From Candidatus Saccharibacteria bacterium RIFCSPHIGHO2_12_FULL_44_22 (GTDB lineage Bacteria; Patescibacteriota; Saccharimonadia; Saccharimonadales; Saccharimonadaceae): 64,000 nucleotides of DNA. The stretch spans positions 48,234 to 112,233 of the forward strand of contig MGCS01000002.1 of NCBI GenBank assembly GCA_001790515.1, given 5' to 3'. Every line of letters begins with the position of its first letter. Position 1 is the stretch's first letter. The notes under the pieces were generated by a model. The model was given only the letters and a program-made list of their open reading frames with translations, made no database searches and had not been told where the DNA came from. Below are positions 26,120 to 56,111 of this stretch, piece by piece. The position numbers were made by a program, and so were the translations under genes.

Positions 26120-28753
26120 ATGGACTCAGACAACGCCTATATAACCGTCCTCAATGCCTTACCACAGGTATACATCAGCGTGTTCGTAGCTCTGGTCGGT
26201 ACCATCATTGTCATTGCCGTTATCTACCCAATTCTTGCGCTATTGCCGTTTTTGCGAGCTCGCTCCCAAGACACTGTGTATCTTGCCGTCACACCACCCT
26301 CATTTAGTCACAAAACGCCCCTCGCCACAGAACAACTCAGCCGTATGCTTCAGAGCCTGCTTGCCAGCCGCACTCTCAAAGAGCGCTTGCTGCTCCGTCA
26401 CCGCATCGCCTCACTTGAACTCATCTCCACCCGTGCGGACGGTATTCGCTACATCTTTTGTCTGCCACGAGAAGACGCACCGATCTTCACCCAACAACTC
26501 ACCGCGTACTTGCCAGATGTTACCGTCACGGAAGTACCTGACCCACTGGAAAAACTGCACCATAGTCCGCAGCTGTTCGTCAAAGAGTTCAAACAAGCTC
26601 GCCACTATGCCTATCCGTTAGCAGCGAATGAAACCTTATCCCAGCACGATCCTATTGCCTACATTAGCAGCGCCATGACCCGCCCCTTACCTGGAGAGCA
26701 GGTTGTCTACCAACTGGTACTGTCGGCAACGCAGCCACGTTCGGTCAACAGGATCCGGAACAAACTGGCACTCGGGCAAGATCCGAACCTCTACAGCGCG
26801 GCACTACCACTCCCAGTGCGCATCTTGTTTTGGCTCATCCGCCTGCCATTCGCCATCTTTACGTTTGTCTTTGGTGTGGTCGGTGAAATGCTTTCACCCA
26901 GCTACCGTTCACCAAAGTACCAACAGGCCCAGTACCAAAAGCAGCCACCCGCCTACCTGCAAACTCCTGCCACCCAAGATCTGTTCTCCAAGTTCAGTGA
27001 CAAACTCGCTCAACCACTGTTTCGGGTAAGTATCCGGGCAGTGGTGGCCAGTGATGACACCCATACCGCTAAACAGACCATGCTCGGAATCTCGTCGGCT
27101 ATGGCGTCGTACCATGTCCCGGGTTACCAGGCACTCGTCAGGAAACGCACACTACCTGGTGGGCTGCACGCAAGGTACCGAATCTTCTGTCTGACACACC
27201 GGTTGCCGTCACCATTCCGGTCGCACGACTCGGTCCTGTCAGTCTCCGAAGTGGCCAGTCTCTACCACTTTCCATATGGCCAGACGAACAGAACGGAGGG
27301 CGTAGCCCAGTCACTCAGCAGCACCTTACCCGCACCGCTGGCCCTCAAGCAGCACGCCGATGCAGCTGACTTTGACGTTGTCCTTGGCGTCAACAAACAC
27401 CATGGGCAGAACACGCCCATTGGTCTGACCGAATCCGAACGCCAACGTCACCTCTACCTTATTGGTGGGACCGGTAACGGCAAGACCACACTGCTGGAAT
27501 ATGGCCTTATCCAGGACATCCAGGCCGGGAAAGGTGTTGCCCTGATCGATCCTCACGGTGACTCGGCTCAAAAGCTCCTGCGGTATATTCCAAAGAACCG
27601 CATGAAGGATGTTATCTATCTTAATCCCCGTGATTTGGATTACCCAATTGGCCTCAACTTACTGGAAATACCGAAGAACCTCACCGGTACCGATCTTAAA
27701 CACGAAAAAGACCTTATCGCTGAAGCCGTGGTGTCGGTACTACGGAAGATCTTTGACGACGCCAGCGGTGCTAATGCCTACCGGATTGAACGGGTACTAC
27801 GAAATGCTATCTACACGGCCTTTACCGTACCAGATGCCACCCTGTTTACGGTCTTACGCCTGCTAGCGGATAACACCTACCGCAAGCAGGTGACCAGAAG
27901 CCTGGACGATGAAAGCCTGAAGCGCTTCTGGAAAGAGGAACTCGGTAAAGCTGGTGACTTCCAACGGGTGAAAATGAGCAGCGGGCCAATCTCCCGGATA
28001 GAGCGGTTTGAACGCAGTGAGTCAGCCCGACGGATGCTGGGGCAAACAACATCCACCATTTCTTTTGATGACATCGTCAATACCAACAAGATCCTTATTT
28101 GCAACTTCAGCAAAGGACGCTTAGGTGAAGATACCTCCACGCTATTTGGGACAACCGTCCTGGCGAAGCTGCAGCTGGCTGCCTGGCGGCGCGACAACAT
28201 ACCCGAAGCCGAGCGCACGCCATTTTACTTGTACGTCGATGAATTCCAGAACTTTGCCAGTGACCATTTCATGAGTCTGTTCTCTGAAGCTCGGAAGTAC
28301 AAGCTGTTTCTGACGATGGCACAGCAGTCGGTCGCGCAGCTCAAAGAGCAGGGTATGGTGACGAACATCTTAGATAACGTTGGTACCCTGATTGTCTTCC
28401 GCTCTAAGAGTCCGGATACCGAACGCTTGGTGCTGCACCAGCTCAAACCTTATGTCGAACCAGGCCAGATTACTAATTTACCGGCTTACCATTTTTATAT
28501 GAAGGTGGCAGCTGTCGAGCCGCAGGAGCCGCTGACGGGTGAGACGTTACTCCCTGACACGAATGGCAATGAGCTGATGGCGAAGAAAGTGATTGCGTTG
28601 TCGCGGGAGTTGTGGGGGCGGGAGTATGTTGAGGAGGAAGAACCGAAAGAAAGACCCCAACAACAAACACAGAAAAAGAGGCCAAAGTCTACTACGGCGA
28701 AAAGGACAGCAACAAAGACTAAGCCGGTCAACAGCAAAGGGCTGCCGAAATAG
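26120..28753 (+). CDS. type IV secretion coupling protein-like ATPase (TraD/TraG/VirD4-like), membrane anchored
   Basis: N-terminal TM hairpin, Walker A LIGGTGNGKTT, DPHGD segment, Walker B-like FYLYVDEFQNF, and a basic C-terminal tail. Confidence 0.7.
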   Translation: MDSDNAYITVLNALPQVYISVFVALVGTIIVIAVIYPILALLPFLRARSQDTVYLAVTPPSFSHKTPLATEQLSRMLQSLLASRTLKERLLLRHRIASLELISTRADGIRYIFCLPREDAPIFTQQLTAYLPDVTVTEVPDPLEKLHHSPQLFVKEFKQARHYAYPLAANETLSQHDPIAYISSAMTRPLPGEQVVYQLVLSATQPRSVNRIRNKLALGQDPNLYSAALPLPVRILFWLIRLPFAIFTFVFGVVGEMLSPSYRSPKYQQAQYQKQPPAYLQTPATQDLFSKFSDKLAQPLFRVSIRAVVASDDTHTAKQTMLGISSAMASYHVPGYQALVRKRTLPGGLHARYRIFCLTHRLPSPFRSHDSVLSVSEVASLYHFPYGQTNRTEGVAQSLSSTLPAPLALKQHADAADFDVVLGVNKHHGQNTPIGLTESERQRHLYLIGGTGNGKTTLLEYGLIQDIQAGKGVALIDPHGDSAQKLLRYIPKNRMKDVIYLNPRDLDYPIGLNLLEIPKNLTGTDLKHEKDLIAEAVVSVLRKIFDDASGANAYRIERVLRNAIYTAFTVPDATLFTVLRLLADNTYRKQVTRSLDDESLKRFWKEELGKAGDFQRVKMSSGPISRIERFERSESARRMLGQTTSTISFDDIVNTNKILICNFSKGRLGEDTSTLFGTTVLAKLQLAAWRRDNIPEAERTPFYLYVDEFQNFASDHFMSLFSEARKYKLFLTMAQQSVAQLKEQGMVTNILDNVGTLIVFRSKSPDTERLVLHQLKPYVEPGQITNLPAYHFYMKVAAVEPQEPLTGETLLPDTNGNELMAKKVIALSRELWGREYVEEEEPKERPQQQTQKKRPKSTTAKRTATKTKPVNSKGLPK

Positions 28754-28809
28754 CCAAGTATGCAGATATATCAGCTAGTTTAAATTCTACTTTCGTGCGA
28801 GTTTTCACT

Positions 28810-28845
28810 CTACCGCTCGCCCTACCGTTCGCTCTACCAATAGCC
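28810..28845. repeat. three tandem 12-bp iteron-like repeats
   Basis: CTACCGCTCGCC / CTACCGTTCGCT / CTACCAATAGCC, head to tail, 57 nt after the T4CP-like gene. Confidence 0.5.
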
Positions 28846-29163
28846 GGTATATCAGTCAGTCACTTTCACCCCTGTTCTTGGCGTCTCACCCGAACCCGAC
28901 TCTTTACGTGTGTCACTATCATTTTTACATACTGCCATTGCGCCCTGTTGGGTTGCTACTTCAGGGACGTTGTTCGTGTAGGTGAGTAGATAAAGCAACT
29001 ACCTCACCCAATATTGTTGCTCAGTTTACCCCACAGTTACAGCACCGTAAATTTGCTACGTGCTTTTCCCTGCAACATCTGGCTCCATGGGAATCTATTC
29101 GTTACTGCCTTTTAAGAGTGGGTCTGACTGTTCTTGGGGTACGTGTTTTATGTCGTTCCTAGT

Positions 29164-30081
29164 TCATCCCACCGCCAAGTAGGCAGCCAGCGTGTGGTTG
29201 GCATGGCGGTCGAGATTCTTGCGAGCCAGGTCATAGCGGTAGGTCGTACGGGGGTCTTCGTGACGGGCACCAGCCTGGACGTCACGCAGTGGCACACCGG
29301 CATCGAGACTGTTCGTGACGTAGGAGTTGCGCAGCAAGTGCGGGTGGACATGCTTGGTGATCCCGGCTCGCTTGGCGAGGGCTTTGACCCAGCGGGCGGC
29401 TGTACGACGGTCGAGTTGTTCTCCACTGGCTCGGCGCAGCAATGAACCACGAGTACGGCCATCGGCAGCATCCCTGAGTGCCAGGTAGACCGACGGGGGC
29501 AATGGTAGGGTTGCGGGCTTGTCGCCCTTCCCCATGATCGACAGCGTCCGGTGGCCTTGAATCTGGCGGTCATGGAAGTCCTCAATCTGGACGTTGCAGG
29601 CCTCTGACACCCGCAGTCCGCACATCGCCATGAGCACGACTAGAGCGTAGCGGGTGGGGTCGGTAGCCCGAGCCTGCTGCAACAGTGCCCCGACTTCATA
29701 CCGATCGAGACCGATCTTCTTCATGTCGTCGACCCATACCTTAGGTAGGCGGACGTGACGAGCCGGGTTGCGGGTAATGAGTTCATCGATCTCGCAGTAG
29801 TCATAGAATGTCTTTACAACATTAAGCCGATGGGCCACTGTCGAGGGGCCGTTGTGGCGGATCTCTTCGAGGTGTCGGCCAAACAACTCAACGTGCACCC
29901 GCTTCACGTCGACCAAGGGGCGTAACTGGTGGTCAAGACACCACCGAACAAAGATCCGCAGGTCGATCTCATACAGGGTGCGGGTGTTGAGATTGCCGTA
30001 GCGAGACAAGAATCCCGCGACCGCCAGGTAGGTGGCATCGTGAGGTGCGACTAGCGTGGAGTCTCCGAAAGGAGTATGCAT
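29164..30081 (-). CDS. tyrosine-type site-specific recombinase/integrase (high GC)
   Basis: Catalytic signature R (GLRVSEA), HxxR (HPHLLRNS), H (ARHEDPRT) and Y (TYRY). I prefer the ATG at 30081 because GC content falls sharply upstream of it. Confidence 0.9.
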   Translation of the reverse strand: MHTPFGDSTLVAPHDATYLAVAGFLSRYGNLNTRTLYEIDLRIFVRWCLDHQLRPLVDVKRVHVELFGRHLEEIRHNGPSTVAHRLNVVKTFYDYCEIDELITRNPARHVRLPKVWVDDMKKIGLDRYEVGALLQQARATDPTRYALVVLMAMCGLRVSEACNVQIEDFHDRQIQGHRTLSIMGKGDKPATLPLPPSVYLALRDAADGRTRGSLLRRASGEQLDRRTAARWVKALAKRAGITKHVHPHLLRNSYVTNSLDAGVPLRDVQAGARHEDPRTTYRYDLARKNLDRHANHTLAAYLAVG

Positions 30082-30318
30082 GAGGGCTTTAAGCCTCCTC
30101 AGTGAGAATCCGGTAATAGTGAATAGAGCCAGCAAGACTCTGTTTTTAAAAAGTGCTCTTTGAATACCTCTCTCTGTATCTACCCACTTCACATAGGCCC
30201 CTCTCTAGGGGTTTGAGGTAGGTACTTAAGTCAAGATACTAGCAGAGGTGGAGCGATCTGCGCTACAGGCTTTCCACACGAAGGTGTAGCGACTGTGGTG
30301 CTTACCGTGCGGAGTGGG

Positions 30319-31773
30319 TCAGAGCCCAGCGGCGGTGAGGTTGGTGACGGTGACCTGCCCGATGCCCTGCTTGGTGCCGACGCCCCCGCCGACCATGAGC
30401 ATCTGCATCCGGTAGACGTAGTCCGCCTGCACGGGGCACACGAACTCGTGAACGATGGTTCCGAGCGGCACGGACTGCTGGGTGTTGAGGTAGCAGAAGG
30501 TGGGGGGGCCGCCGTCCGTCTGTCCGAGCCGCACGACCGCTTGAGTGGGAGCCGTGCCCACGACGGTGAGGAAGTACTTGCATTCCACGCGGTACCGGTT
30601 CCCGGGGATGAATGCCTCTGTGAGCGGCACGACTCCGCTTGTGCTCACCCCGCCGTCCACGGTCTGCGTGACCGTGAACATCTTCCCGACCACGCCAGCC
30701 ACGGTCTCGACGGCGGTGCTCGCAGAGCCGTAGCCGAGCGAGGTCCAGTCCTCGGGCACGAAGCCGCTCTTGACCAGCAGGAGCGGCTTATTGATGAGGT
30801 CGGCCGGAGAGGGCTGCGCGACGGCGAGCGTAGACACGTCAGGCCAGACGGCGGACACCGCGGCGCCGAACGCGAGGCCGACTGCGCGCGCCCCGGCCGC
30901 ATTCCAGTGGGTGCCGTCGCTGTTGAAGGCGGCAGCAATGTAGCCGGTGGCAGGATCGACCACGGCGGCGTAGTTGTCCACGAACAGGTAGCCGCGCTCG
31001 CGGGCCGTGATGCGCTTCCACCGATTGAGGCGCTGGACGTCGGCCGTCGAGGCGGTCGAGGGCGGGATGGAGCAGACGATGACCTTGATCCCGGCGTCGT
31101 CGAAGGCGTCGTACATCGCGGTCAGGGCGGCGATCTGCTGGGCGAGGTTGCCCACGTTGTTCGTGCCGAGCGCGTCCACGGCGGCGTAGGGCGCGGCGGC
31201 GATCACCCCGGCGAGGAAGTTCGTGTTCCACTGCGCGGGCGTGATGGAGGGCGTCGCAGCATGTACGGCGATGTGGTACCGCCCGCCGGCGGCGAGCGTG
31301 GCCCAGCCGACCCAAGAGTGGTTCTCGCAGGGGATGAGCGGGGCGGTCAGGAGGTTGTAGACCCCGACGCCGCCCGCGCCAGTGACGCCGGCCGCGCTGT
31401 TGGAGTCGCCACAGATCGCGAGGCCGCGACTTCCGGCCGGGGACAGGAGGGCGAGTGGGGCGGCTGTCGCAGTCTCGACCCCCTCGGCAATCGTGGCCGA
31501 AAGGGCACCTGCCGTAGCACTAGTATTGTCGTTTATTTTTGCGGCAGTCTGGGTATCCAGGTCAGTGGTATTAAGTTTGGCAGTGAGTGCAGAGGCATCG
31601 GCCTTAGTGGTAAGGGTGTTTTGGATTGAGGTGAGGTCACTTGTAAGGTTTGTTATCTTAGCTTGAGGTATGTCTTTAAGAGTGCCATCGGTTTCGTGAG
31701 CTTGCGATAGGTAGTCATTGAGGATATCTCCCCAATTGCCGTTGTCTCCTCCTGGTTTTGGTAATCTAGCCAT
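30319..31773 (-). CDS. fibre-family protein: conserved MARLP N-terminal module fused to an SGNH/GDSL hydrolase and a C-terminal beta-sandwich-like domain
   Basis: N-terminus MARLPKPGGDNGNWGDILNDYLSQ is shared with four other ORFs. SGNH blocks are CGDSNS, DALGTNN and SDGTHWN. A sharp GC shift lies near 31500 inside the ORF. Confidence 0.75.
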   Translation of the reverse strand: MARLPKPGGDNGNWGDILNDYLSQAHETDGTLKDIPQAKITNLTSDLTSIQNTLTTKADASALTAKLNTTDLDTQTAAKINDNTSATAGALSATIAEGVETATAAPLALLSPAGSRGLAICGDSNSAAGVTGAGGVGVYNLLTAPLIPCENHSWVGWATLAAGGRYHIAVHAATPSITPAQWNTNFLAGVIAAAPYAAVDALGTNNVGNLAQQIAALTAMYDAFDDAGIKVIVCSIPPSTASTADVQRLNRWKRITARERGYLFVDNYAAVVDPATGYIAAAFNSDGTHWNAAGARAVGLAFGAAVSAVWPDVSTLAVAQPSPADLINKPLLLVKSGFVPEDWTSLGYGSASTAVETVAGVVGKMFTVTQTVDGGVSTSGVVPLTEAFIPGNRYRVECKYFLTVVGTAPTQAVVRLGQTDGGPPTFCYLNTQQSVPLGTIVHEFVCPVQADYVYRMQMLMVGGGVGTKQGIGQVTVTNLTAAGL

Positions 31774-31856
31774 GTCTTTGTTTAAACTCTACAATACTCT
31801 CACGTATGTGTGTTATATAAGTGCTTATGTATACGAGTATTAGGGATGTGGGTTTA

Positions 31857-31880
31857 ATTGTCAAGGGAAAGTTTGACAAT
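31857..31880. promoter_or_regulatory. palindromic operator-like site upstream of the island fibre gene
   Basis: ATTGTCAA-N8-TTGACAAT, perfect 8-bp arms, about 85-105 nt upstream of the ATG at 31773. Confidence 0.35.
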
Positions 31881-32217
31881 CAAGAGAGATAAAGTCGTAA
31901 AAGCGTTATACGTACGTTTCATTCGCAGAAAAACAGCCTTCTTGTCAAGATAAACTGGCTAGAAAGCTAGGATGAACGACGGACAGAACGGGCAGGTTCA
32001 TTACGTTGTCATACTGCTTCGGGCTGCTTCGGATGAGTACGCACGCGGTAGTTAGTGTAACAGTAAGAGGTAATAAAATAAAAAGAGCATATCTCAAAAC
32101 AAGGATAATCCAATCCCCTCTACTTCCACTATACGCCTTACGCTTACATAGCGGTAGATGCCGTAGTGCCAGGCTGGGTAGATCACTATAATTTGTATAG
32201 GAAGGGAGGGAAAATAT

Positions 32218-34401
32218 ATGAAGTGGAATAGTAACATAACGCAGGAGGTGTATTGGCAACAAATACACTGGCCTAGCAAAGTGGAGCCAGACGATGCTCT
32301 GCAACTGTTTCGGCATATCGCCGCTGACCACCGTGACCGGGTGGTCGTGTTTGAGGTTCGCAGTGGTACTGACGGTCTTGTCAATTTTTTGGTCGGATGT
32401 GCACGCGGATACATGCCGTATATAAAGCAGCTTATTGAAAGCCATGTCGATGGCACCTTTGTGACATCGCCAACCATCCGTCGCCGTCCCGTTACAACAG
32501 CGCATACGCTGAAGCTAACCAATAAGACGAGGCCGCTGCGCGTGGCCCACTCCAAACTAACCGCTAAATCAATATTGGCAGCCATCGCAGGGGTGAATCC
32601 TCCCGAGCACGCTACACTGCAACTTGTACTCGGTGGCCGGATTCGGCCTGTGGCCGTCCCGACTAGGACGCAGGAAAGTGCCCTCATGCCCTGGTGGCAG
32701 CGAGTACTGTCGACGGATGGCGCGCTTCGGGTTGACCGTGAAAAACGAACGGCCTACCGGGTAAAAGTAGCGGCACCCGGGTTTCGCTGTGCGCTGCGTA
32801 TTGGGATCAGTACGCCGGATAAAGCTCGCCAGACTGACCTGTGCTTGGATCTCGTGGCGGGTGCCAGAACGGCTGAGACCCGCAGTGCCTATGTGAGCGT
32901 CCGGCGGCTCCTTCGGAACAAACGCTTCGATAGTCCGTCGCGGCTACCATACCTAGGCTCCATGCAGCTGAATATTAACGAGCTGCTTGGCTTGTCAGCC
33001 TGGCCACTTGGCAGTGACACCATGCCGGGCCTTAATCGGCGCGGCTTTCGCCTCTTGTACGCTGATCAGACGATCGAGTCGTCGACACGGATTATTGCCC
33101 GCTCCACCGCACCGGGCGATAAGCGTCTACTCGGGCTGAACATCGAAGACGCGCTTCACCACCTCCATGTCCTCGGCCCGACTGGTGTTGGCAAAAGCAC
33201 GCTGCTGCTTAACCTCGCCTGCCAGGACATTGTGGCTGGACACGGGGTCGTTGTGATTGACCCCAAAGGTGATCTGGTCAAAGATATTCTGCGCCGAATT
33301 CCGTCTGAGCGACGTGACGATGTTATTGTGATCGATCCCGCTGATATGACAGCGCCCGTTGGCCTGAACCCGCTGCGGGGGACGGCGGCTGATGAGAAAG
33401 CGGATGTTATTGCTGATCACCTCCTGGCTGTATTCCATGGCTTATATAAGGATGCCTGGGGGCCGCGGACGCAGGATATTCTGCATGCCAGTTTACTGAC
33501 CCTTGCCCTGCAGGAGCATAGTAGCTTGGTGATGTTGCCAGCGCTGCTTACCGACCCCTATTTTCGTCGCAGCTTTGTCGACGAACTGCATGACCCGATT
33601 GCTCTCGAACCATTCTGGCGCTGGTACGAACAGTTGTCACCAGGCGAGCAGCAACAAGCGATTGCTCCGGTGATGAATAAGCTCCGGGCTTTTCTGCTAC
33701 GGCCCCAAGTTCGGGGCGTGATTGGACAAGTACAGCCTCGTTTTACACTCGACGAAGTTTTTAACGGCCAGAAAATTCTGCTCGTCTCCCTCGCCAAAGG
33801 ACTCATCGGTAGCGAGGCGGCGGCCTTACTTGGGTCACTGGTCGTGGCTCAGATTCGTCAGGCTACCCTGGCGCGGGCAGCCCTGCCGAGTGAGGCTCGA
33901 CGTCCGATCACGGTTTTTATTGATGAGTTCCAAGATTATATGCACTAGCCGGATGACCTCGCCGATGTATTAGCCCAAGCTCGCGGCCTTGGTGTGGCGA
34001 TGACGCTCGCCCACCAGCACCTTGACCAACTGACGCCTGCCATGCGGATGGCTGTGTTGGCGAATGCTCGCTCGCGGGTGTGTTTCCAGCTGTCGGCAGC
34101 CGATGCCAGCGTCATCGCTCATACCAGTGACTTACTCCAGCCAGAAGATTTTATAAAGCTGGGCCGCTACGAGGTCTATGCCAGTTTGGTCGGCAACGGT
34201 CAAGTCAGGCCATTTGCCTCTGGCAAAACTTTGGCCTCGCCACCAGTGCTAGGAAGTCACCGACAACTACGCCTCGCTAGCCGGGAGCGCTACGGGCAAT
34301 CCATGGCAGACAGCGAGCTGCGCCTCCTTGAACAGATACAGCCACAACCAACCTATGAGCTCCTTGGGCGTCGCTTACGCTCGACGAAGGAGGCAGCATG
34401 A
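32218..34401 (+). pseudogene. type IV secretion coupling protein-like ATPase interrupted by an in-frame TAG (33946..33948)
   Basis: ORFs 32218..33948 and 33994..34401 are in the same frame. Walker A is LGPTGVGKST, with DPKGD and Walker B-like VFIDEFQDY just before the TAG. The continuation PDDLADVLAQARGLGVAMTLAHQH aligns with the paralogue at 26120. Confidence 0.75.
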
Positions 34402-35243
34402 AACATGATGTCGTGCATCGAACGGAGGCCTCCTTTTCTGCGCGCGATCAGGCGATACTGAGGCGACTGGCCGAGCATCGCTACCTCACCTCTCGGCAGA
34501 TTGAGCGCTTCTTCTTTACTCGCCACCATAGTCCAGCCTCGGCCGCACGGTCGTGTCGCCGCGTCCTGGCACGTTTATATGAGCAACATCTTGTGACGCG
34601 CCTGTCAGTCCGGGCTATTGGCGGCTGGGCAGCGGGTTCAACCGGCTATACCTACCGTCTAGCCCGCCCGGGCTACGAAGCCCTGACGCTGCGGCCAAAT
34701 AATACCGTCACTCGCTCGCCGCTGTTTTTAGAACATACCTTAGCGATTGCAGATGTCAGGCTGGCACTGGAGCAGCTGGCTCGGGCGCAGCGGCTCCAGT
34801 TAGTGGGCGTCGATACGGAACCGAATAACTGGGTATACTATGGCAGTTTCGGGGTGCGCGAAGTCCTGAAGCCCGATCTGTTTGTGGTGACTGCCACCTC
34901 ACCAGAGAGTGACTATGAGGACACCTGGTTTATTGAGCTTGACCGAGCCACCAGTAGCCTGAACGCTGTCCTCCAGAAATGTCGACAATACATTTCGTAT
35001 CGCTTGAGCAGCGAGGCCCGGGCTCGTCCTGGTGGTTTCCCAATTGTTGTCTGGCTGGTGCCAACGAGACGCAGGCAGCGTGAAGTGCAACAGATAACTC
35101 AAAAGTTGCCCCTCTCTCAGCGCGATATTTTTCGAGTTGTACTGAGGCAACAGTTCGCGGCCTACCTGTCTGCGTACTATTCTCTCGGACAGGTTGCGCT
35201 GCAAGCTTCGAACCATCCGAGCATAGCTCGAAGGAGAGTTTGA
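34398..35243 (+). CDS. replication-relaxation family protein
   Basis: Family-typical N-terminus (RDQAILRRLAEHRYLTSRQIERFFF), a central HTLAIADVRLAL, and the KPDLFVV...WFIELDRATSS block. Its start overlaps the upstream stop (ATGA). Confidence 0.7.
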   Translation: MKHDVVHRTEASFSARDQAILRRLAEHRYLTSRQIERFFFTRHHSPASAARSCRRVLARLYEQHLVTRLSVRAIGGWAAGSTGYTYRLARPGYEALTLRPNNTVTRSPLFLEHTLAIADVRLALEQLARAQRLQLVGVDTEPNNWVYYGSFGVREVLKPDLFVVTATSPESDYEDTWFIELDRATSSLNAVLQKCRQYISYRLSSEARARPGGFPIVVWLVPTRRRQREVQQITQKLPLSQRDIFRVVLRQQFAAYLSAYYSLGQVALQASNHPSIARRRV

Positions 35244-35244
35244 A

Positions 35245-35262
35245 TTTTCCTTTAGAGGAAAA
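35245..35262. terminator. short bidirectional hairpin between convergent replication-relaxation genes
   Basis: TTTTCCT-TTAG-AGGAAAA, a 7-bp stem flanked by A/T runs. Confidence 0.4.
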
Positions 35263-35279
35263 ATCAAACTACGGATAGG

Positions 35280-44290: not shown

Positions 44291-45862
44291 TTAATTTCCA
44301 CCGACGATAAACCACGATCCTGATGCGGTTGTGCTAATAAGCGTGACGTACTTGTACTGAGTAGCGAGGGTGTAGTTGGTCGCTCCGTCGATAGTACCCG
44401 CAATTGTCACCGCATTTGCAGATGAATCAACTTTTTTGATCGTAAATCGATACCCCGCCGTCGTTGTCGTAGGAAGTGTTATTGTATACGCCCCTGCCGT
44501 TGCATTGCATAGTTGGTATTCGACCGAACCGGTCGTGAGCGTCGCGGTCGTTGTTGTTGATGCAGAGGCCGACCGTACACTTCCCGCCGATGCAAATGAA
44601 CCCGATAATGCAAGTGAATATCCCGTTCCAGATACACGTAGTCCTAGATTTGAAAGGACAGTACCAAGATCTGTCGTTGCAGCCGGCTGTACGATTGGTG
44701 TTGCGTTAAAAAATCCAATTTTCTGCGTTGTTGCAGTGCCAATTTTTGAGCCTGTTGTCGTGCCGAGATCGATATTGACACTATCTGCGAGGTTCAGCGA
44801 TGCATTCGTTATTTGTATCGATGAGGTGTTGCCGCTGGTAAACGTCATCCTGTTTACATCAGCAGTGCCAGCCGTATCGCGTGTTCGGAGCACGATAGTA
44901 CCACCCGTCCCCGACTGGTCAATGTATGATGCCGCCGTACGATTAAATTGTAGATTATTTGAAGTGAGCGTTGTCGTGAGTGTGCCGTTCGTTGCCGTGT
45001 GCTGGAGCGACTGAGTAGTGCCCGTGGTAGTCATAGACGTAGGCGCAATCGCGCCCAGTCCGATAGTAATAGCGGGTGTCGTTGTCGCATTGGTCACACT
45101 CGCCGTTACTCCTTGATTACTTGAAACAGACACAGATGTCACCGATGTCGCCACGGCAGTTGCAACAAAAGCCGTCGTCGCAAGCTGCGTCGTTGTCGTG
45201 CCTGCTGTCGCAGTTGGCGCCGTAGGTGTACCTGTGAGTGCAGGTGACGCAAGCGGAGCAAGGAGCGCGTCGGCGGCATCGACATATTGTTTGTTTGTAA
45301 TATGAGTTGCAGCCGTTGGTGTATTGATTGAACTGACGCCGCCCGTCGTACGGTACATGATTGTCGAAGCACCAGTCCCCGAACTAAAGCCAACGGAAAT
45401 GTCGGTACCGCCGCTTCCGCGAGCATACACAATGTTCGTCCCCGTCACGACCGATACTTTTGCGTCAAGCGCAGTTTGTGTTGCGACACTAATCGGCTTG
45501 TCTCCATCGCTGACATTATCAACGCTACCAAGCCCGATGTCACTTTTCGTCAGTATGACGTCACCAGTCATATCGTTTACTTTCGTGACAGGTGCGGATT
45601 GCAGTGCGCTATCGGCTTTAGAAAGCGATGTCTGAACCGTGCTGCTTAGTTTGGCGAGCGCAACGCTGCTATCAGCAATAATCGAAGCGTTGGCTGAATC
45701 ATCCGCAAGAGCGGCATTCGTGACAGAATTTGGCGCAAGCACATTTGCTGTCACTGCATTGTCCTTTAGCTGTCCGTCTGCTTTTAAGGCCTGCGACAAA
45801 TAATCATTGAGTATGTCTCCCCAATTACCTGAGTCTCCACCGGGCTGTGGTAAGCGTGCCAT
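44291..45862 (-). CDS. fibre-family protein: MARLP N-terminal module plus T/S-rich tail-fibre-like body
   Basis: MARLPQPGGDSGNWGDILNDYLSQ start. Phage-fibre-type motifs are PTAPTATAGTTTTQLATTAFV and KIGFFNATPIVQ, with a C-terminal YTITLP...FTIKKVDSSANAVTI...SGSWFIV knob-like pattern. Confidence 0.7.
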   Translation of the reverse strand: MARLPQPGGDSGNWGDILNDYLSQALKADGQLKDNAVTANVLAPNSVTNAALADDSANASIIADSSVALAKLSSTVQTSLSKADSALQSAPVTKVNDMTGDVILTKSDIGLGSVDNVSDGDKPISVATQTALDAKVSVVTGTNIVYARGSGGTDISVGFSSGTGASTIMYRTTGGVSSINTPTAATHITNKQYVDAADALLAPLASPALTGTPTAPTATAGTTTTQLATTAFVATAVATSVTSVSVSSNQGVTASVTNATTTPAITIGLGAIAPTSMTTTGTTQSLQHTATNGTLTTTLTSNNLQFNRTAASYIDQSGTGGTIVLRTRDTAGTADVNRMTFTSGNTSSIQITNASLNLADSVNIDLGTTTGSKIGTATTQKIGFFNATPIVQPAATTDLGTVLSNLGLRVSGTGYSLALSGSFASAGSVRSASASTTTTATLTTGSVEYQLCNATAGAYTITLPTTTTAGYRFTIKKVDSSANAVTIAGTIDGATNYTLATQYKYVTLISTTASGSWFIVGGN

Positions 45863-48195: not shown

Positions 48196-49950
48196 CTAAA
48201 CTGCGAGTAAAGCAGCATCATTCATAGCAAAGCGTACCGTCGTACCTGCGGAAACTGATACCGGAGACGATGCAGTTGGAGCTGTAAGATTGAGCGTCTG
48301 AGCCGTGCTATTGCGAATCAAGTACGTACGCCGAGCACGTGGAAAAGTGATAGTCCTAGTGGCCGTAAGTGTACCGATAAAATCAATAAACGATGCGTCG
48401 CCTTGCCGAACAGCCAGCGTCGTATCAGCATCAGTTAGTGTAATAGTCGAAAATGGCTGGTGTGTTGAACTGTTGATCTCACAGCCCCATAATTCATTGC
48501 CAAATGCTCCGCTCGCCTGATCGACTTCTGTTCCGGATGTACCTTTTACAATACGGCTATTACGAAGTTGGTTTGCCATACATGCACCGCCAACAAAGCG
48601 AACGACGGATAGAGAGGTCGTCGATGATAACGTTCTGAAATCAGATTGATCCCAAGTATTTTTTTCACATGGCGGAGACGTGGCGCTCTCTAAATAAAGC
48701 GCATACGATCCCGTAGAGTCATACAGTTCGCCTTGTGCTCGAGTGCGGCGTGAGCGTCGAATGTCCATCGTTATGCCAACCGTAATAAACACGTTATCGC
48801 TAAATCGCGCATCGTTCAGAAAGTCAAACCCGCTCCCAAACCCTGAACGATCGAGTGATTTATTCTGCGTCACAGTCGGTGCTATGTTCACGGAAGTGTT
48901 GGCGTTGTTTGACATGCTGATTAACTTGCATGTACTACCCAGATTGGTAAATGTATTACCTGTAACGATCGCATACTGGTGATCACGAGCATATTCGATT
49001 GCAATGGTTGCCGAATCATCAAAATGACAGTGTAATGTTTTGCAACCTAACATCTTGCCGCTGTACGAAAGCGCGATGCCCGTCGTAACGTTACCACAAG
49101 ACAAGAACTGGCATGATTCGGTGCGAACATTACGCACGCGCACCGTCGTATCGGTGTCACCAGTGTGATCCTGAATCTCGACACCCATACGACCACACCT
49201 ATCAAATACGCAGGTATCAAACAAAATATCGTCGACCGCCAAAGCAGCAAGTCCGTCAGCAATTATCTTTGCGCCATTCGTCGCGCGATTGATAGCACGA
49301 AATGTACAACTGCGAAACTTCACACGTTTTAGCGTTTTTGAAAGCGATCGCACCAGTCCGCCTGATGCGTTGTTTGTCGCATCAATTACAGTCGTTTCAA
49401 AAATAATATTCTCAAACGTCACATCTTCACAGTTAATAAGATTGATCAGATTCGTCAATGTATCCGAAAAGATACGAGTGCCGCTCTGCCCCACTACCGT
49501 TACGCCACTGACAGAACCAGCGATCGAAGTTGCCAGATAATAATTTCCGCTCGGGAGAATGAGGTTCTTGCCGAGTGCAAACGCAGCAGCAAGAGCCGCT
49601 GAGTCATTCGTCGTACCGTCACCAACTACCCCTACCTCTCGGACATTCACTAAATCACCAAGTAATCGTGACGTGGCATTAAGTTTTGTCTGCACAGCAC
49701 CACCAAGAAGCACTTCGGTAATCGTTCCGTCGGCAATGATCGAAGCATTGACCGAATCATCCGCAAGCGCTGCATTTGTCACACTGTCCGGAGCAATAGC
49801 TGCTGAAGTCACCGAATTATTCTGTAGCTGGGCAGCACCGATAGTGTTATCTTTTATCGTCCCGTCACTTTTATGAGATTGTGACAAATAATCATTGAGG
49901 ATGTCTCCCCAATTGCCGTTATCTCCTCCTGGTTGTGGTAAGCGTGCCAT
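48196..49950 (-). CDS. fibre-family protein: MARLP N-terminal module plus pectate-lyase-3/parallel beta-helix (tailspike depolymerase-like) domain
   Basis: MARLPQPGGDNGNWGDILNDYLSQ start. VREVGVVGDGTTNDSAALAAAF is the Pectate_lyase_3-type entry motif, followed by repeated beta-helix turns (CTFRAIN, CVFDRCG, CQFLSCG, CHFDDS). Confidence 0.75.
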   Translation of the reverse strand: MARLPQPGGDNGNWGDILNDYLSQSHKSDGTIKDNTIGAAQLQNNSVTSAAIAPDSVTNAALADDSVNASIIADGTITEVLLGGAVQTKLNATSRLLGDLVNVREVGVVGDGTTNDSAALAAAFALGKNLILPSGNYYLATSIAGSVSGVTVVGQSGTRIFSDTLTNLINLINCEDVTFENIIFETTVIDATNNASGGLVRSLSKTLKRVKFRSCTFRAINRATNGAKIIADGLAALAVDDILFDTCVFDRCGRMGVEIQDHTGDTDTTVRVRNVRTESCQFLSCGNVTTGIALSYSGKMLGCKTLHCHFDDSATIAIEYARDHQYAIVTGNTFTNLGSTCKLISMSNNANTSVNIAPTVTQNKSLDRSGFGSGFDFLNDARFSDNVFITVGITMDIRRSRRTRAQGELYDSTGSYALYLESATSPPCEKNTWDQSDFRTLSSTTSLSVVRFVGGACMANQLRNSRIVKGTSGTEVDQASGAFGNELWGCEINSSTHQPFSTITLTDADTTLAVRQGDASFIDFIGTLTATRTITFPRARRTYLIRNSTAQTLNLTAPTASSPVSVSAGTTVRFAMNDAALLAV

Positions 49951-53430: not shown

Positions 53431-54174
53431 CTATTTGAGTGCCTGCTGTGCAGTGTAACCAAAAGATAAGTTATAGCCTACATGCTTCTGAAATTGCTGG
53501 TTTGAAGCTGTAATCCATGGTGAAGTATATTCCGTCGAGAGATCCGAGGCAGTCCAGCCCGATAAGACTTGAATAGGAACTGTTTTAGATTTAGCATCCC
53601 ACCCACTCTCAATATCGGTAAACGGAGAAAGCCATACCCCATTAAAGACAACCTGACCTGGGTAGGAAACCGCGTCACGAGTATTATAATTTCGTATGTG
53701 CAGCCTCCACTGTTTTGTCGCAACAGGCAGACGTACGGAATTGACAATATTGACGCCAGGTCCGCCTACACCAAGTGAACTCGATGGCGTATTCCCTCCA
53801 CATGCCGAAACAATAAAAATACCTGTTTTGGCGCCTACTTCAGAAGGTTTCGCGTACATTTCATCAAAGTCAGTTTGATTTATATCCGTAAATGGAATTC
53901 CACTAGAGGGCTTAGTGTACTTTTCTGCTACATCTACAGCCTGCGCTGCAGTGTCCGCTCGAGCAAGTGAGTTCTGTATCGACATTGTAAGGCTACTGAC
54001 CATAACGCTGCCATCCAAAATAGCATCCTGTGTCACAGAACCAGTAGCTAGGTTGCTGGCCACAATAATACTGTCTTTGATTGTTCCGTCCGCCTTATGT
54101 GACGTAGCAAGATAGTCATTGAGAATACTTCCCCAATTGCCTGCGTCTCCTCCTGGTTGTGGTAGTCTAGCCAT
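53431..54174 (-). CDS. fibre-family protein: MARLP N-terminal module plus beta-sandwich-like domain (possibly truncated)
   Basis: MARLPQPGGDAGNWGSILNDYLATSHKADGTIKD start and a YTKPSSGIPFTDI fibre-type motif. It ends 50 nt before the SGNH ORF. Confidence 0.7.
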   Translation of the reverse strand: MARLPQPGGDAGNWGSILNDYLATSHKADGTIKDSIIVASNLATGSVTQDAILDGSVMVSSLTMSIQNSLARADTAAQAVDVAEKYTKPSSGIPFTDINQTDFDEMYAKPSEVGAKTGIFIVSACGGNTPSSSLGVGGPGVNIVNSVRLPVATKQWRLHIRNYNTRDAVSYPGQVVFNGVWLSPFTDIESGWDAKSKTVPIQVLSGWTASDLSTEYTSPWITASNQQFQKHVGYNLSFGYTAQQALK

Positions 54175-54833: not shown

Positions 54834-56111
54834 TTAACTTTGCAATAATCCGTATCCTGCGGTTGAATGAAGGTCATCCACGAGAGCTTTTACGACCCCC
54901 GCTAATTCTGTCAGCGTGACAGTACTCGTATCAAAGGTTGTGCGCTTAGAAGTTCCTGTTGCCACTGCCCACCCTGCACGCTTTGTTACTGGCGTTGCTC
55001 CAAAGAAAGCCAGACGTTTTGCTCCTGTGCCGCCATTGCCGATGGCTAATATTGTTTCGTATGATGCAGAGCCTAGCGCCGCGTTTGCGCTCGCTTCGAA
55101 TATTAGTGATGTTGACGATTGACGTATTCGTGACTGGTAGTAGATGTTTGCCGTACCAGAGTTACGCGCAAACTCGATGCCGTTCATATCTAAGTAAACA
55201 TGGCTACGGCTAGTAGCAGGTACTGTGGAATCATCTCTGGCGTCAATTCGAGCAGATGCGCCATTGAACTCAACATTAGTTCCGAATTCTAGTATTCCGT
55301 CTGCGCTTCGTACGGAGAATCCCTTAGCGTTCGCACCCTGTACCTTCAAGATTCGAGACGTCGATGCCGTTTCGTACGAAATAAGGTCGAGTAGAGATGC
55401 GGCACCACCGGTAGTGAGTTTCTGTTCAGCGTACACCGCAGGTGCAAGGTTCGATTTTTGATCGATATTCAAACCGTAGGCAGTGGCACTAGTGATGCTC
55501 GAAACCTGTTCGATTTTAAGGCCAATTCCTTTAGCCTTATTTCTAAAAATAAAGCCGTTACCTAATCCGGCGTCAATACCGACTCCGACAAGCCAGCTTC
55601 CATTTGATGTATTTTGTCCAGCCATTAAATGAAATAGATAGCCTGCCGTATCGTTATGGATATATTCCCATACGCCTGCACGTGCGTCACCGGTTGGCTT
55701 AATGACGACAGGTGATCCTACGGGGGTGCCCATATTAGAAACATAGCCAGTCGTGATATTTGATGCCGCAGCTTGCGAAAGTGCAGCATCAGCCTTATCC
55801 AGACTCGCTTGTACCGAACTTACGAGTTTTATTTTAGCCACACTCCCATCAACAATATTTGCTGGCGCATTTAGTTTTGTCTGCACTGCTGTAGCTAGGA
55901 GTGTTTCGGTTATCGAGCCATCGGCAATTGTACTTGCATCTACCGAATCGCTCGCAAGTGCAGCGCTGGTTACAGAGCTTGGAGCAAGTGCGCTTGCCGT
56001 CACGGCGTTATCTTTGATGGTTCCATCAGATTTATGACTCTGCACCAAATAATCATTGAGAATACTCCCCCAATTCCCTGCGTCACCTCCTGGTTGTGGT
56101 AAGCGTGCCAT
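54834..56111 (-). CDS. fibre-family protein: MARLP N-terminal module plus uncharacterised head
   Basis: MARLPQPGGDAGNWGSILNDYLVQSHKSDGTIKD start. The first ~85 aa are co-linear with the 49950 copy. The C-terminal region has the KRLAFFGATPVTK motif also seen in 44291..45862. Confidence 0.7.
   Translation of the reverse strand: MARLPQPGGDAGNWGSILNDYLVQSHKSDGTIKDNAVTASALAPSSVTSAALASDSVDASTIADGSITETLLATAVQTKLNAPANIVDGSVAKIKLVSSVQASLDKADAALSQAAASNITTGYVSNMGTPVGSPVVIKPTGDARAGVWEYIHNDTAGYLFHLMAGQNTSNGSWLVGVGIDAGLGNGFIFRNKAKGIGLKIEQVSSITSATAYGLNIDQKSNLAPAVYAEQKLTTGGAASLLDLISYETASTSRILKVQGANAKGFSVRSADGILEFGTNVEFNGASARIDARDDSTVPATSRSHVYLDMNGIEFARNSGTANIYYQSRIRQSSTSLIFEASANAALGSASYETILAIGNGGTGAKRLAFFGATPVTKRAGWAVATGTSKRTTFDTSTVTLTELAGVVKALVDDLHSTAGYGLLQS

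Follow-up and report, generated by a model that had tools for sequence, protein, structure and literature searches.

A gene with a step in composition

We analyzed a stretch of 64,000 nucleotides from a Candidatus Saccharibacteria genome (hereafter, the window). At 30319..31773 on the minus strand, the window contains a single open reading frame of 484 codons, which runs from ATG to TGA without interruption and encodes a protein of 484 amino acids. This gene (locus tag A2707_05005) is on a contig of ~1.04 Mb from a metagenome-assembled genome (MAG). We found no predicted signal peptide or transmembrane segment in the protein.

An earlier reading of this DNA, made from the sequence alone (the sequence-only reading), described one open reading frame whose GC content switches abruptly near 31500. 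Its hand counts are exact on recount: GC content is 38.3% for 31621-31680, 50.0% for 31561-31620, and 71.7% for 31441-31500. Across the gene, GC content is 46.9% for 31501-31773 and 69.4% for 30319-31500. For GC content at third codon positions (GC3), the maximum-likelihood change point is at codon 91 (nucleotide 31500), where GC3 rises from 0.42 in the upstream part to 0.90 in the downstream part. The log-likelihood ratio for this step is 48.0, as compared to a mean of 2.5 and a maximum of 8.3 across 2,000 shuffles of the order of the codons in this reading frame. None of the other 22 reading frames that we scanned (300 amino acids or more) had a change point with a ratio above 6.9. A smooth profile would have refuted the idea of a switch, but both GC and GC3, as computed, have a sharp step at codon 91.

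The codon usage of the downstream part, which we will call the head, is also unusual. For background genes in the window, GC3 is about 0.32-0.51. Using a model of synonymous codon choice from the background genes, codons 92-484 of our gene score -1.485 per codon, versus -1.154 +/- 0.049 for the background genes themselves. Thus, the codon usage of the head is an outlier that lies far beyond the background range. The head is also rich in alanine and glycine.

The front end is related to Saccharibacterial proteins

The gene is preceded by an AT-rich leader. A consensus scan identified a promoter-like site in the leader at 31836..31864 on the minus strand (TTGACA-17 nt-AATACT; 10 of 12 positions match), and in an alignment with the orthologous leader of a related locus (L021), both hexamers are conserved. 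Closer to the gene, 19-39 nucleotides 5' of the ATG, is the motif CACACATA-N6-AGTATTG (31792..31812, minus strand). The sequence-only reading had noted that this stretch is shared with the leader of another gene, which starts at 56111. This is literally true: the pattern CACACATA..AGTATTG has exactly two matches in the window, at 31792-31812 and at 56152-56167, and none would be expected from shuffled sequences. Both copies are upstream of related fiber-like genes, and the second copy precedes the gene that starts at 56111. But the meaning of the shared motif is uncertain, as the leaders align poorly otherwise: when we aligned the leaders of the five related genes in the window, we saw no convincing conservation apart from the short motif. 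Also, a search of Rfam with the leader upstream of 31773 found no family.

The first 34 codons (31672..31773, minus strand; GC3 of about 0.4) encode an N-terminal adaptor, MARLPKPGGDNGNWGDILNDYL...DG.LKD, which characterizes a fiber-like family from Saccharimonadia. The adaptor begins at the first residue and matches the family's pattern, MARLPQPGGDxGNWGxILNDYL. It is shared by at least five genes in the window: our gene and four paralogs, all on the minus strand. The paralogs are at 44291..45862; at 48196..49950, with a head that resembles the beta-helix of pectate lyases; at 53431..54174, which is short (247 amino acids); and at 54834..56111. The adaptor of our protein is 73-82% identical to those of the four paralogs, nucleotide identity among the paralogs is 73-88%, and 22 columns within residues 1-34 are invariant in the alignment. 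The paralogs match families of minor tail proteins and tail fibers in PHROG, with E values down to 9e-18; this best value is for 44291..45862, which has strong matches to families of minor tail proteins from actinophages (PHROG 8780). Our protein matches phrog_6102 ("lipase", E = 1e-10) and, weakly, a tail protein family (E = 9e-4). In a scan of GTDB, residues 1-34 had matches only in Saccharimonadia MAGs (n = 7, 70-85% identity). The adaptor is also 35-48% identical to the N-termini of fiber proteins from Streptomyces phages.

Codons 35-91 (31501..31671, minus strand) encode a stalk of ~57 amino acids that ends with ...LDTQTAAKINDNTSATAGAL and that is probably helical. In an AlphaFold2 (AF2) model of the monomer, residues 14-100 are modeled as helices, but the confidence is low. 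The stalk is 64-80% identical to the proteins P0010, P0011, and P0012, and residues 1-100 match P0010 to P0013, which are all CPR-type proteins. The proteins of the window itself were deposited as Candidatus Saccharibacteria. These similarities support the view that the promoter, the 5' untranslated region, and codons 1-91 are Saccharibacterial and resident. The sequence-only reading had already assigned the AT-rich part to a promoter and leader followed by ~90 codons of a family adaptor and stalk, and both the boundary at codon 91 and the Saccharimonadia-type relatives agree with that assignment.

The head is related to esterases from phages of Actinobacteria

The high-GC head comprises codons 92-484 and the stop codon (30319..31500, minus strand). 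We predict that it contains two domains: an SGNH/GDSL esterase domain at amino acids 117-319 (30817..31425, minus strand) and a beta-sandwich that resembles carbohydrate-binding modules (CBMs) at amino acids 352-478 (30340..30720, minus strand). Both domains had been suggested by the sequence-only reading, and they are borne out by Pfam, AF2, and Foldseek. Amino acids 122-297 match Lipase_GDSL_2 (PF13472) with 40.1 bits, which is above the gathering cutoff of 32.9 bits. The SGNH motifs are present as GDSN (residues 122-125), GTNN (203-206), and DGTHW (286-290), and they are conserved in the homologs P0002 to P0008. In other words, we identified blocks I (GDS), III (GxN), and V (DxxH), with the nucleophilic serine, the oxyanion asparagine, and the Asp/His pair; we did not individually assign the glycine of block II. 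In the AF2 model, the domain has a three-layer alpha/beta/alpha, flavodoxin-like fold, with pLDDT of 73-96 over residues 151-310 (means of 10-residue blocks). Foldseek hits for this domain include the GDSL acylhydrolases 4iyj and 3p94 (E = 8e-8, with TM scores normalized by the target of 0.67-0.81), as well as sialate O-acetylesterases and acetyl-xylan esterase. By sequence alone, the best hit in PDB was a GDSL lipase at E = 0.007, with none closer. By profile, motifs, and predicted fold, then, the head meets the definition of the SGNH/GDSL hydrolase superfamily; we have no activity data. The beta-sandwich is modeled with nine strands (pLDDT of about 57-86, again as means of 10-residue blocks), and its Foldseek hits include CBM4, CBM16, and CBM22 modules and a C-terminal domain of the tailspike of Klebsiella phage K2-2.

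Residues ~97-484 match the proteins P0002 to P0009. The close relatives of the head (55-76% identity) are from uncultured phage or prophage contigs, and for the best of them, identity is ~75% in DNA and 73-76% in protein. When we compared the DNA to P0002 to P0006, we found 70-75% identity, but only across 30321-31503 of the window. The genes for P0002, P0004, and P0005 are in tail modules, after tape-measure, Dit, or Sipho_Gp37 genes, or else at one end of a prophage from Pseudarthrobacter. The contigs that encode relatives of the head are akin to Arthrobacter and Microbacterium phages, with the tail modules of siphophages. In a neighbor-joining tree, the head is sister to P0003 and is nested within a clade of phage or prophage type. 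More distantly, esterases from Gordonia phages (Clark and MoiGyank) and from a Microbacterium phage (Shocker) match 52-78% of the head with 28-31% identity. In the wider family of the head, just 3 of 148 representatives have the Saccharibacterial adaptor. A scan of IMG/VR with the full protein found no relative.

The two parts of the protein therefore have separate relatives, as expected from the sequence-only reading: Saccharimonadia or CPR-type proteins for the front end, and Arthrobacter/Microbacterium-type phage genes for the head. The same reading had proposed a high-GC Gram-positive donor. This holds for the Actinobacteria, and it can be refined to tail genes from phages or prophages of the Micrococcales type, but the actual donor is absent from the databases. 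From these homologs, the view that the head derives from minor tail or tail fiber proteins of phages or prophages of Micrococcales-type, high-GC Actinobacteria is supported. Because the actual donor has not been sampled, a link to a phage of the epibiont's own host is only an extrapolation from the context of the family.

The end of the stalk as a probable recurrent exchange point

We considered whether the junction could be an artifact of assembly. A 14-kb region that includes the junction is 100% identical in a second assembly (L018), and 11.4 kb of the region is identical in a third (L019); one of these is from a separate sequencing run. Because the junction is identical in these two further assemblies, a chimera at this point seems unlikely, with the caveat that related samples may be the source of these assemblies. 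Two NCBI assemblies have the identical protein, and SRR3989338 has a 99% variant (P0001), for which there is no gene record. Contigs from two near-identical strains (L020 and L023) stop a short way past the head, at 30141 and 30193.

The crossover interval can be narrowed to 31500..31503 (minus strand). The GC3 change point is at 31500; homology to L021, which shares the front end, runs to 31501; and homology to L016, which belongs to the head family, extends from 31503 to the stop codon. In an alignment of five stalk paralogs, all of them diverge at 31500..31503. The join is in the last turns of the stalk, where SATAGAL is followed by SATIA, and a similar motif (AL-x-[AS]-T-[YI]-A) is found there in the donor family as well as in the recipient family. 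We could not detect any similarity between the stalk DNA of the donor and recipient families, so there is no demonstration that the shared motif served for homologous recombination. Alternatively, selection for in-frame joins at the boundary between domains could have led to a common junction.

In L021 and L022, the same promoter and codons 1-91 (80% nucleotide identity) are followed by a different tail of 44 amino acids, with GC3 of 0.80, while the backbone of the surrounding element is 90% identical to the window. The product of this allele has 135 amino acids, and both contigs end shortly after the stalk. This fulfills another expectation of the sequence-only reading, that related genomes would have other heads at the junction. 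Three more stalk paralogs, from another Saccharibacterium, lead into different GC-rich heads at the junction: P0010 and P0012 have the same step in GC3 near codon 90, with different heads, and a third paralog at L007 splits at the same point into DNA with 66-68% GC (this is windowed GC content, not GC3). The head of P0012 is 40% identical to gp36, a deacetylase, of Arthrobacter phage Gorpy over 92% of its length and is also similar to minor tail proteins of Gordonia phages. We found no match for the head of P0010 in phage genomes. Because related genomes have the same stalk with other GC-rich C-termini, the end of the stalk acts as a recurrent exchange point.

A census of the heads that follow the stalk, made in a metagenome collection with an exact DNA pattern, found three loci: L007 and L021, which we already knew of, and a chance match in an unrelated contig with 57% GC. 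For proteins without DNA sequences, amino acid composition (GARP minus FYMINK) was not discriminating as a proxy for the step in GC.

The gene lies within a mobile-element-like segment

Just 126 nucleotides downstream of the head, and on the same strand, is a tyrosine recombinase (29164..30192, minus strand; Phage_integrase in Pfam). The true start of this integrase is probably at 30081, for a protein of 305 amino acids. Its GC3 is 0.67, and its named relatives are from Actinobacteria (Nocardioides at 59-69% identity and Pseudarthrobacter at 54%). We did not find a terminator between the head and the integrase. What role the adjoining integrase had in the capture of the head, if any, is unresolved by the present data.

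On the other side of the gene is a divergent gene similar to type IV coupling proteins (32218..34401, plus strand; TrwB_AAD_bind and T4SS-DNA_transf in Pfam). In the window it is split into pieces of 576 and 135 amino acids, while L021 and L022 encode an intact protein of 727 amino acids; its DNA is 90% identical to that of L021. The same block of 90% identity includes a relaxase-like gene (34398..35243, plus strand; Replic_Relax, PF13814, E = 4e-33). A second coupling-protein-like gene (26120..28753, plus strand; 877 amino acids; TraG-D_C and TrwB_AAD_bind in Pfam) flanks the integrase. This gene has GC3 of 0.61, and its relatives are from Saccharimonadales (47-83% identity). In PLSDB, we found no match for the relaxase-like protein, and the coupling protein has only distant matches in plasmids. 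We searched for attachment sites and found a weak direct repeat of 34 nucleotides (74% identity) at 25374 and 36772, but no empty site was recovered.

We took an integrase, a Replic_Relax protein, and TrwB/TraG-like ATPases in a cluster as the mark of an integrative element that is mobilizable or conjugative, and the integrase, the Replic_Relax gene, and both ATPases lie within 26-35 kb of the window. The "resident" part of our gene belongs to the backbone of a segment that resembles a mobile element, and is not ordinary chromosome. The segment as a whole is not actinobacterial, given the Saccharimonadales relatives of the 877-amino-acid coupling protein. Neither our gene nor its paralogs in the window have phage structural genes around them, so the locus does not qualify as a phage tail module; in particular, there are no capsid, tape-measure, baseplate, or terminase genes around the five genes or at L004 or L007.

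Several known ways of exchanging gene segments were rejected. A shufflon or invertible switch (Rci or Gin/Cin/Min) does not fit: the only inverted pairs that we found within 25-37 kb are weak (14-29 nucleotides, 76-93% complementary) and have no relation to the junction, and we saw no second cassette for a head. For a diversity-generating retroelement, we found neither a direct repeat of the head within 25-37 kb nor a reverse transcriptase domain among the neighbors that we scanned. Integron-like capture is not supported because there are no repeated sites at the ends of the head, and because no recombinase gene is close to the stalk loci with GC-rich heads at L007 and L008. Transfer of the head and the integrase as one fragment is disfavored by their differing GC3 (0.90 versus 0.67) and by the homology of the head, which ends at its stop codon; we keep it as a minority rival.

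Explanations for a probable recombinant gene

We think that this is probably a recombinant gene of the phage-tail-fiber type, with a Saccharibacterial front end and a captured SGNH/CBM-like head from an actinobacterial phage-type gene. The sequence-only reading had inferred that a head was replaced by recombination behind a resident adaptor, and that inference is supported by the composition, the ancestry of each part, the junction, the alternative alleles, and the identical assemblies. In the event, ~1.18 kb of foreign DNA, from codon 92 to the stop codon, would have taken the place of an earlier C-terminus. Because the head has not been ameliorated (GC3 of 0.90 versus 0.42), the capture is inferred to be recent. 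The DNA may have entered by natural transformation with DNA of the host or of a host's phage, and short-homology or illegitimate recombination could have fixed it; both steps are inferred. The epibiont would then display a fiber-like protein that is anchored through its adaptor, but no docking partner or secretion route has been shown. By analogy to the SGNH tail spikes of phages, the head might bind and deacetylate an acetylated glycopolymer in the cell wall of an actinobacterial host, and such a head might set or widen the specificity for hosts. Without data on expression, localization, or enzymatic activity, a receptor-binding or catalytic role for the head is an inference and has not been shown.

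It is also possible that the front end, not the head, was replaced: a whole fiber gene from an actinobacterium or its phage might have arrived, perhaps with the integrase, and a resident paralog might then have replaced its 5' end and promoter through gene conversion. The head and the adjoining integrase are contiguous (29164-31500) and both have actinobacterial relatives. In temperate actinophages, the integrase often comes directly after the minor tail genes, and the high similarity of the adaptors among the paralogs (73-88% nucleotide identity) fits gene conversion. But in L021 and L022, which have a different C-terminus, the promoter and codons 1-91 are linked to the conserved backbone with the coupling protein, so it is the 5' part that is stable and the 3' part that is variable. 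The integrase's GC3 is far from that of the head, and other stalk loci have GC-rich heads with no integrase nearby. We consider replacement of the adaptor unlikely. Nor do we favor the idea, which seems quite unlikely to us, that the fiber is an accessory of the mobile element, that is, an adhesin for mating pairs or for recognizing recipients, as is PilV of IncI plasmids, with a head that sets the range of transfer, and is not what attaches the epibiont to its host. The gene is flanked by two coupling-protein-like genes, a relaxase-like gene, and the integrase; its 5' half is part of the backbone that is shared with L021 and L022; and a tyrosine recombinase next to a variable C-terminus recalls Rci and the shufflon. 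Yet 25-37 kb has no inverted repeats or silent cassettes, and the four adaptor paralogs and the genes for P0010, P0011, and P0012 are in ordinary chromosomal settings without transfer genes. Also, because the 727-amino-acid coupling protein is split in the window, the element may be decaying.

Given the PHROG matches of the paralogs to tail fibers and minor tail proteins, and the resemblance of the adaptor to the N-termini of Streptomyces phage fibers (35-48% identity), the protein could instead be the fiber of a virion, tailocin, or gene transfer agent, from a phage-like particle that infects Saccharibacteria, with the paralogs as prophage remnants. This is highly improbable: the structural genes of a particle are missing near all five genes and at L004 and L007, the five genes are scattered among housekeeping genes, and the specificity of the head is from phages of Actinobacteria, not of Saccharibacteria. 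An artifact, either a chimeric assembly or a native gene whose GC content shifted with its amino acid content, is barely credible. MAG contigs can be chimeric, the contigs of L020 and L023 do end just beyond the head (at 30141 and 30193), and alanine and glycine are abundant in the head, but L018 and L019 (one of which was sequenced in a separate run) and two NCBI assemblies have the identical sequence. Furthermore, the reading frame is kept at the join and the protein homology continues across it without a break, the shift is largest at synonymous third positions (0.42 to 0.90), and paralogs from other metagenomes have the same step.

Comparison to known systems

In the receptor-binding proteins of phages, SGNH esterase domains deacetylate surface polysaccharides (PMC9569702, PMC8471582, PMC13123978). 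The closest parallels to our gene are the mosaic tail fibers and tailspikes of phages, whose receptor-binding heads can be exchanged, and in particular SGNH proteins of this kind, such as those from Pectobacterium phage Possum, Acinetobacter phage Aristophanes, and temperate phages of Klebsiella. As in our gene, a conserved N-terminus for docking is followed by a fibrous stalk and then by an enzymatic or binding head, with exchange at the boundary between stalk and head. The head of our gene is an SGNH fold with intact motifs plus a beta-sandwich of a sugar-binding type, and its nearest relatives are encoded in phage tail modules. Unlike these fibers, our gene belongs to a cell, an epibiotic CPR bacterium, and is not surrounded by virion genes; the exchange is also between phyla, across a gap of 25 points in GC content. 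Isolated phages match the head only distantly, through minor tail proteins of actinobacteriophages that are annotated as hydrolases, esterases, or glucosaminyl deacetylases and whose N-terminal parts have no relation to ours.

Saccharibacteria are naturally competent, and their epibiotic growth requires adhesins and polysaccharide-binding proteins (PMC10633639). Genes have been transferred from hosts to Saccharibacteria; for instance, the arginine deiminase system was acquired (PMC8764695). Our gene resembles these cases in that foreign DNA entered a reduced genome, the source taxa are hosts of cultivated Saccharibacteria, and competence offers a route. But in contrast to the arginine deiminase system, a domain-sized, in-frame fragment was acquired instead of a whole gene or operon; this occurred repeatedly at one junction; and the apparent source is phages of the hosts. 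As for PilV from the shufflon of IncI plasmids, an adhesin whose C-termini are switched by the tyrosine recombinase Rci, it shares with our gene a variable C-terminal adhesin segment beside a tyrosine recombinase on a transfer-related element. Unlike in the shufflon, there are no inverted, sfx-like repeats or silent cassettes, and the variation is between genomes, by foreign DNA and not by inversion.

What is new here is the swapping of tail-fiber heads in a cellular epibiont. We tentatively suggest, as a conjecture that could well be wrong, that Saccharibacteria maintain the adaptor and stalk as a platform, and that receptor-binding or glycan-esterase heads from phages of actinobacterial hosts are repeatedly swapped in at its distal end, probably via natural competence, to track the surface of the host and to evolve host range. 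How ultrasmall CPR epibionts recognize and bind their hosts is stated to be largely unknown (PMC11623550). This locus is a concrete and testable candidate for host recognition: a modular fiber whose head is of the kind that phages use on Actinobacteria. If the conjecture is correct, then hosts could be predicted from the head sequences in MAGs, by matching them to phage receptor-binding proteins whose host is known. It would also provide a mechanism for rapid shifts in host range, it would document gene flow at the level of domains from the phages of hosts to epibionts, and the 34-amino-acid adaptor would point to a docking structure on the epibiont's surface that is still unidentified.

There is also a consequence for annotation. 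Some pipelines call a spurious antisense reading frame of 444 amino acids over the head in place of the real gene.

A composition step within one gene

The ORF at 30319..31773 (-) is a single unbroken frame of 484 codons, from ATG to TGA, and it is a recent recombinant in which a Saccharibacterial adaptor and stalk are joined to an esterase and CBM-like head. The sequence-only reading had claimed an abrupt GC break within this ORF, and its three hand counts of GC content were exact on recount (38.3%, 50.0%, and 71.7%). The computed GC at third codon positions (GC3) changes abruptly instead of gradually: 20-codon windows have values of 0.35-0.55 as far as about codon 90, and of 0.8-1.0 between about codon 110 and the stop. 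The likelihood change point is codon 91 (nucleotide 31500), where GC3 goes from 0.42 to 0.90. The log-likelihood ratio for this change point is 48, as compared to a maximum of 8.3 in 2000 shuffles of codon order and to 6.9 or less in all of the other ORFs that we scanned (n = 22, at least 300 aa). GC3 is ~0.32-0.51 in background genes of the window and 0.59-0.67 in genes of the surrounding 26-35 kb segment, so the head is a third, more extreme class. Synonymous codon choice in the head is also far beyond the range of background genes.

Residues 1-34 of the protein (MARLPKPGGDNGNWGDILNDYL...DG.LKD) are an adaptor with 73-82% identity to four further genes of the window, which start at 49950, 45862, 56111, and 54174, are all on the (-) strand, and have unrelated C-termini. 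Residues 35 to ~100 are a stalk that is predicted to be helical. The sequence-only reading had these parts followed by an SGNH esterase and a beta-sandwich, which is correct according to the domain, motif, and predicted-fold data. Residues 117-319 match SGNH/GDSL (Pfam PF13472, above the gathering threshold) and contain the motifs GDSN (122-125), GTNN (203-206), and DGTHW (286-290); the predicted fold resembles GDSL acylhydrolases, sialate O-acetylesterases, and one acetyl-xylan esterase. Residues 352-478 form a nine-stranded beta-sandwich that is similar to CBM4, CBM16, and CBM22 modules and to the C-terminal domain of a Klebsiella phage tailspike. We found no signal peptide or hydrophobic segment in the 484-aa protein.

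A 444-aa antisense ORF (30295-31629, +) inside the GC-rich head replaces the real gene in the gene tables of other assemblies of this region (L018 and L019). This ORF is a high-GC artifact.

Relatives of the two halves

The protein is OGL22644.1 / OGL32672.1 (locus tag A2707_05005), from a Candidatus Saccharibacteria MAG with a 1.04-Mb contig. Across one representative genome per GTDB species, relatives were found only for the first 33-69 residues, and all were from Saccharimonadia MAGs. In a collection of 5.8 billion proteins, the hits split cleanly, which agrees with the claim that the two halves have different relatives. P0010, P0011, and P0012 share residues 1-~100 with the query (64-80% identity) and then have other heads, while P0002 to P0009 share residues ~100-484 (55-73% identity) and have different N-termini.

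The contig with the P0004 gene is related to Arthrobacter phages, and this gene comes after tape-measure, Sipho_Gp37, and other tail genes. On a contig related to Microbacterium phages, the gene for P0002 has M23 peptidase and lectin tail genes around it. The gene for P0005 lies at a prophage end in the chromosome of Pseudarthrobacter sp. NIBRBAC000502772. The genes of the phage-side relatives have 63-67% GC and GC3 of 0.75-0.86. In a neighbor-joining tree of heads, rooted with P0013 (a distant Saccharibacterial homolog), the query is nested in the phage/prophage clade as the sister to P0003. By lineage, the head belongs to the tail proteins of actinobacterial phages and prophages. Its close family is tiny, as judged by a full HMMER scan of 1.84 billion representatives, and the Saccharibacterial adaptor is present in just 3/148 members of the wider head family (25-37% identity). 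Isolated phages match the head only distantly (31% identity for the "hydrolase" of Gordonia phages Clark and MoiGyank).

Another adaptor-family protein, P0070, was deposited as Streptomyces caniscabiei; its source may be an epibiont contig that was included in a Streptomyces assembly.

The junction

Three independent lines of evidence place the junction within 3 nt: the GC3 change point, the end of nucleotide homology (at 31501) to L021/L022, which are contigs of a related Saccharibacterial element, and the start (at 31503) of nucleotide homology to the head family (L016, L003, L002, and L001). Homology to these four head-family loci ends at the stop codon, and we found nothing past it. Given these converging boundaries, the foreign piece is ~1.18 kb, or almost exactly the segment that encodes the head. 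At the protein level, the join reads ...SATAGAL / SATIAEGVE..., and a comparable motif is found at the stalk ends of phage-side proteins: LSATIA (P0004), LTATYA (P0005), and LNATYA (P0006). Also, LDTATAAKINDTASAS of P0006 resembles LDTQTAAKINDNTSAT of the query. No DNA similarity was detectable between the donor-type and recipient stalks.

If the junction were an assembly chimera, the sequence-only reading would be refuted. Some contigs do break on either side of the head: those of two strains that are 99.96-99.98% identical (L020 and L023) stop at 30141 and 30193 of the window, and L021 and L022 stop just beyond the stalk. These breaks might come from strains that differ in the head or only from difficulty in assembly. 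Without read mapping, and from sequence comparisons alone, an artifact seems unlikely, because the region is identical in further assemblies, because the identical protein has been deposited from two NCBI assemblies (with a 99% variant from SRR3989338), and because the join is in frame, with continuous protein homology across it. Specifically, the 14 kb at 24000-38000 are 100% identical in L018, a 110-kb ENA contig, and 11.4 kb of this region are identical in L019, a Logan assembly of a separate run (SRR22387915). The integrase is present on twelve contigs, and for the L018 contig, seven further places with mostly the same neighboring genes were reported.

Other C-termini at the same junction

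The junction in the query gene has been used repeatedly. L021/L022 have a coupling-protein and relaxase block that is 90% identical to 32080-35268 of the window, and their promoter, leader, and codons 1-91 match 31501-31871 at 80% identity. The sequence-only reading had proposed to look for alternative heads at the junction, and there is an alternative C-terminus: after codon 91, the L021/L022 gene has a different tail of 44 residues, and its product ends at 135 aa. GC3 of this gene also rises at the junction, from 0.46 to 0.80. In an alignment of five stalk genes (the window gene, L021, P0010 twice, and P0012), conservation is good up to ...AGTGCNACGGCNGGNGCNCT, and the sequences diverge completely beyond it. 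In P0010 and P0012, GC3 steps from 0.4-0.6 to 0.8-0.97 at about codon 90, and their heads are unrelated to the window's head. The head of P0012 is a polysaccharide deacetylase (40% identity over 92% of its length to gp36 of Arthrobacter phage Gorpy) and is also similar to minor tail proteins of Gordonia phages; the head of P0010 had no phage match. A third stalk paralog, from contig L007 of another Saccharibacterium, has an FN3-containing head from the same point, in DNA of 66-68% GC. Given these alternatives in L021/L022, P0010, P0012, and L007, the window gene is one case of a repeated pattern, with the same stalk end and different GC-rich C-termini. In P0011, the stalk is followed by a GDSL head without a GC step, which fits an older or native head.

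In an 8-kb stretch of L007 (Ga0172380_10004321, 6379-14449), three stalk paralogs surround tatA/tatC and a Fic gene. All three run into GC-rich DNA, with P0010-like, polysaccharide deacetylase, and FN3-containing heads. A phage-database record named "TM7" phage matches the deacetylase head of P0012.

Possible origin and role

Head swapping in tail fibers and esterase tailspikes are textbook phage biology. The query gene shares this class of mechanism, but its setting is unfamiliar: the swap is found in a cellular epibiont, crosses phyla, recurs at one junction, and has inferred host-phage donors. It is directly relevant to how CPR epibionts recognize their hosts, which is still an open question. 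Whole-gene transfer into Saccharibacteria has been reported (PMC8764695). In the searchable literature, we found no description of Saccharibacterial fiber-like proteins that capture phage-type heads; the sole related mention is of a "tail fibre-like protein" that is co-localized with a CPR pilus operon (bioRxiv 10.64898/2026.03.03.709456).

As naturally competent bacteria that live attached to Actinobacteria (PMC10633639), Saccharibacteria would have access to DNA from hosts or host phages. We infer that such DNA could enter via natural competence and integrate by short-homology or illegitimate recombination, and that selection would retain those joins at the domain boundary that keep the reading frame. 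When phages adsorb, their SGNH esterase heads bind surface polysaccharides and deacetylate them (PMC9569702, PMC8471582, PMC13123978). By analogy, the query protein might recognize an acetylated glycopolymer in the cell wall of a high-GC Gram-positive host and deacetylate it; the adaptor's partner and the export route are unknown.

Genomic context

The query gene is inside the 26-35 kb stretch of raised GC, which also encodes two coupling-protein-like ATPases, a Replic_Relax protein, and a tyrosine recombinase that directly follows the head and is encoded on its strand. Just past the high-GC end are an IS1595 transposase and a second Replic_Relax-like gene (35280-36014). Judging from their relatives, these neighbors have mixed origins: among named relatives, those of the 877-aa ATPase are from Saccharimonadales (47-49% identity), and those of the recombinase are from Actinobacteria (69% for Nocardioides campestrisoli and 52-61% for others). 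The 727-aa coupling-protein-like ATPase that is intact in L021/L022 is split in the window into 576 and 135 aa (32218-33948 and 33994-34401, +), which suggests that this mobile-like element may be decaying. We considered a shufflon, DGR, or integron-like mechanism and rejected it, as we found no inverted repeats, silent cassettes, or repeated sites indicative of one in a search of 25-37 kb. We found no recombinase near the other capture loci. A 34-nt direct repeat with 74% identity (25374-25407 and 36772-36805) flanks the raised-GC segment plus the IS1595 copy and is a weak candidate for the element's ends.

The resident AT-rich leader contains a promoter-like TTGACA-17-AATACT (31864..31836) that is conserved in L021. 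At 44291-56111, four fiber-like paralogs cluster with a type IV pilin-like protein with a CBM_4_9 domain (50888-51688) and a GDSL lipase (52724-53380), which fits a host-interaction role, and this may be a host-interaction neighborhood. A LOOT RNA (Rfam RF03000; 61 bits versus a gathering score of 46) is at 56250-56369 (-), ~140 nt upstream of the paralog at 56111; no equivalent was detectable upstream of the 31773 gene. Elsewhere in the window, a secretory lipase (PF03583 LIP, 489 aa) at 7730-9199 (-) has GC of 0.56 and GC3 of 0.60, versus a background of 45% GC, and is a candidate for another foreign gene.
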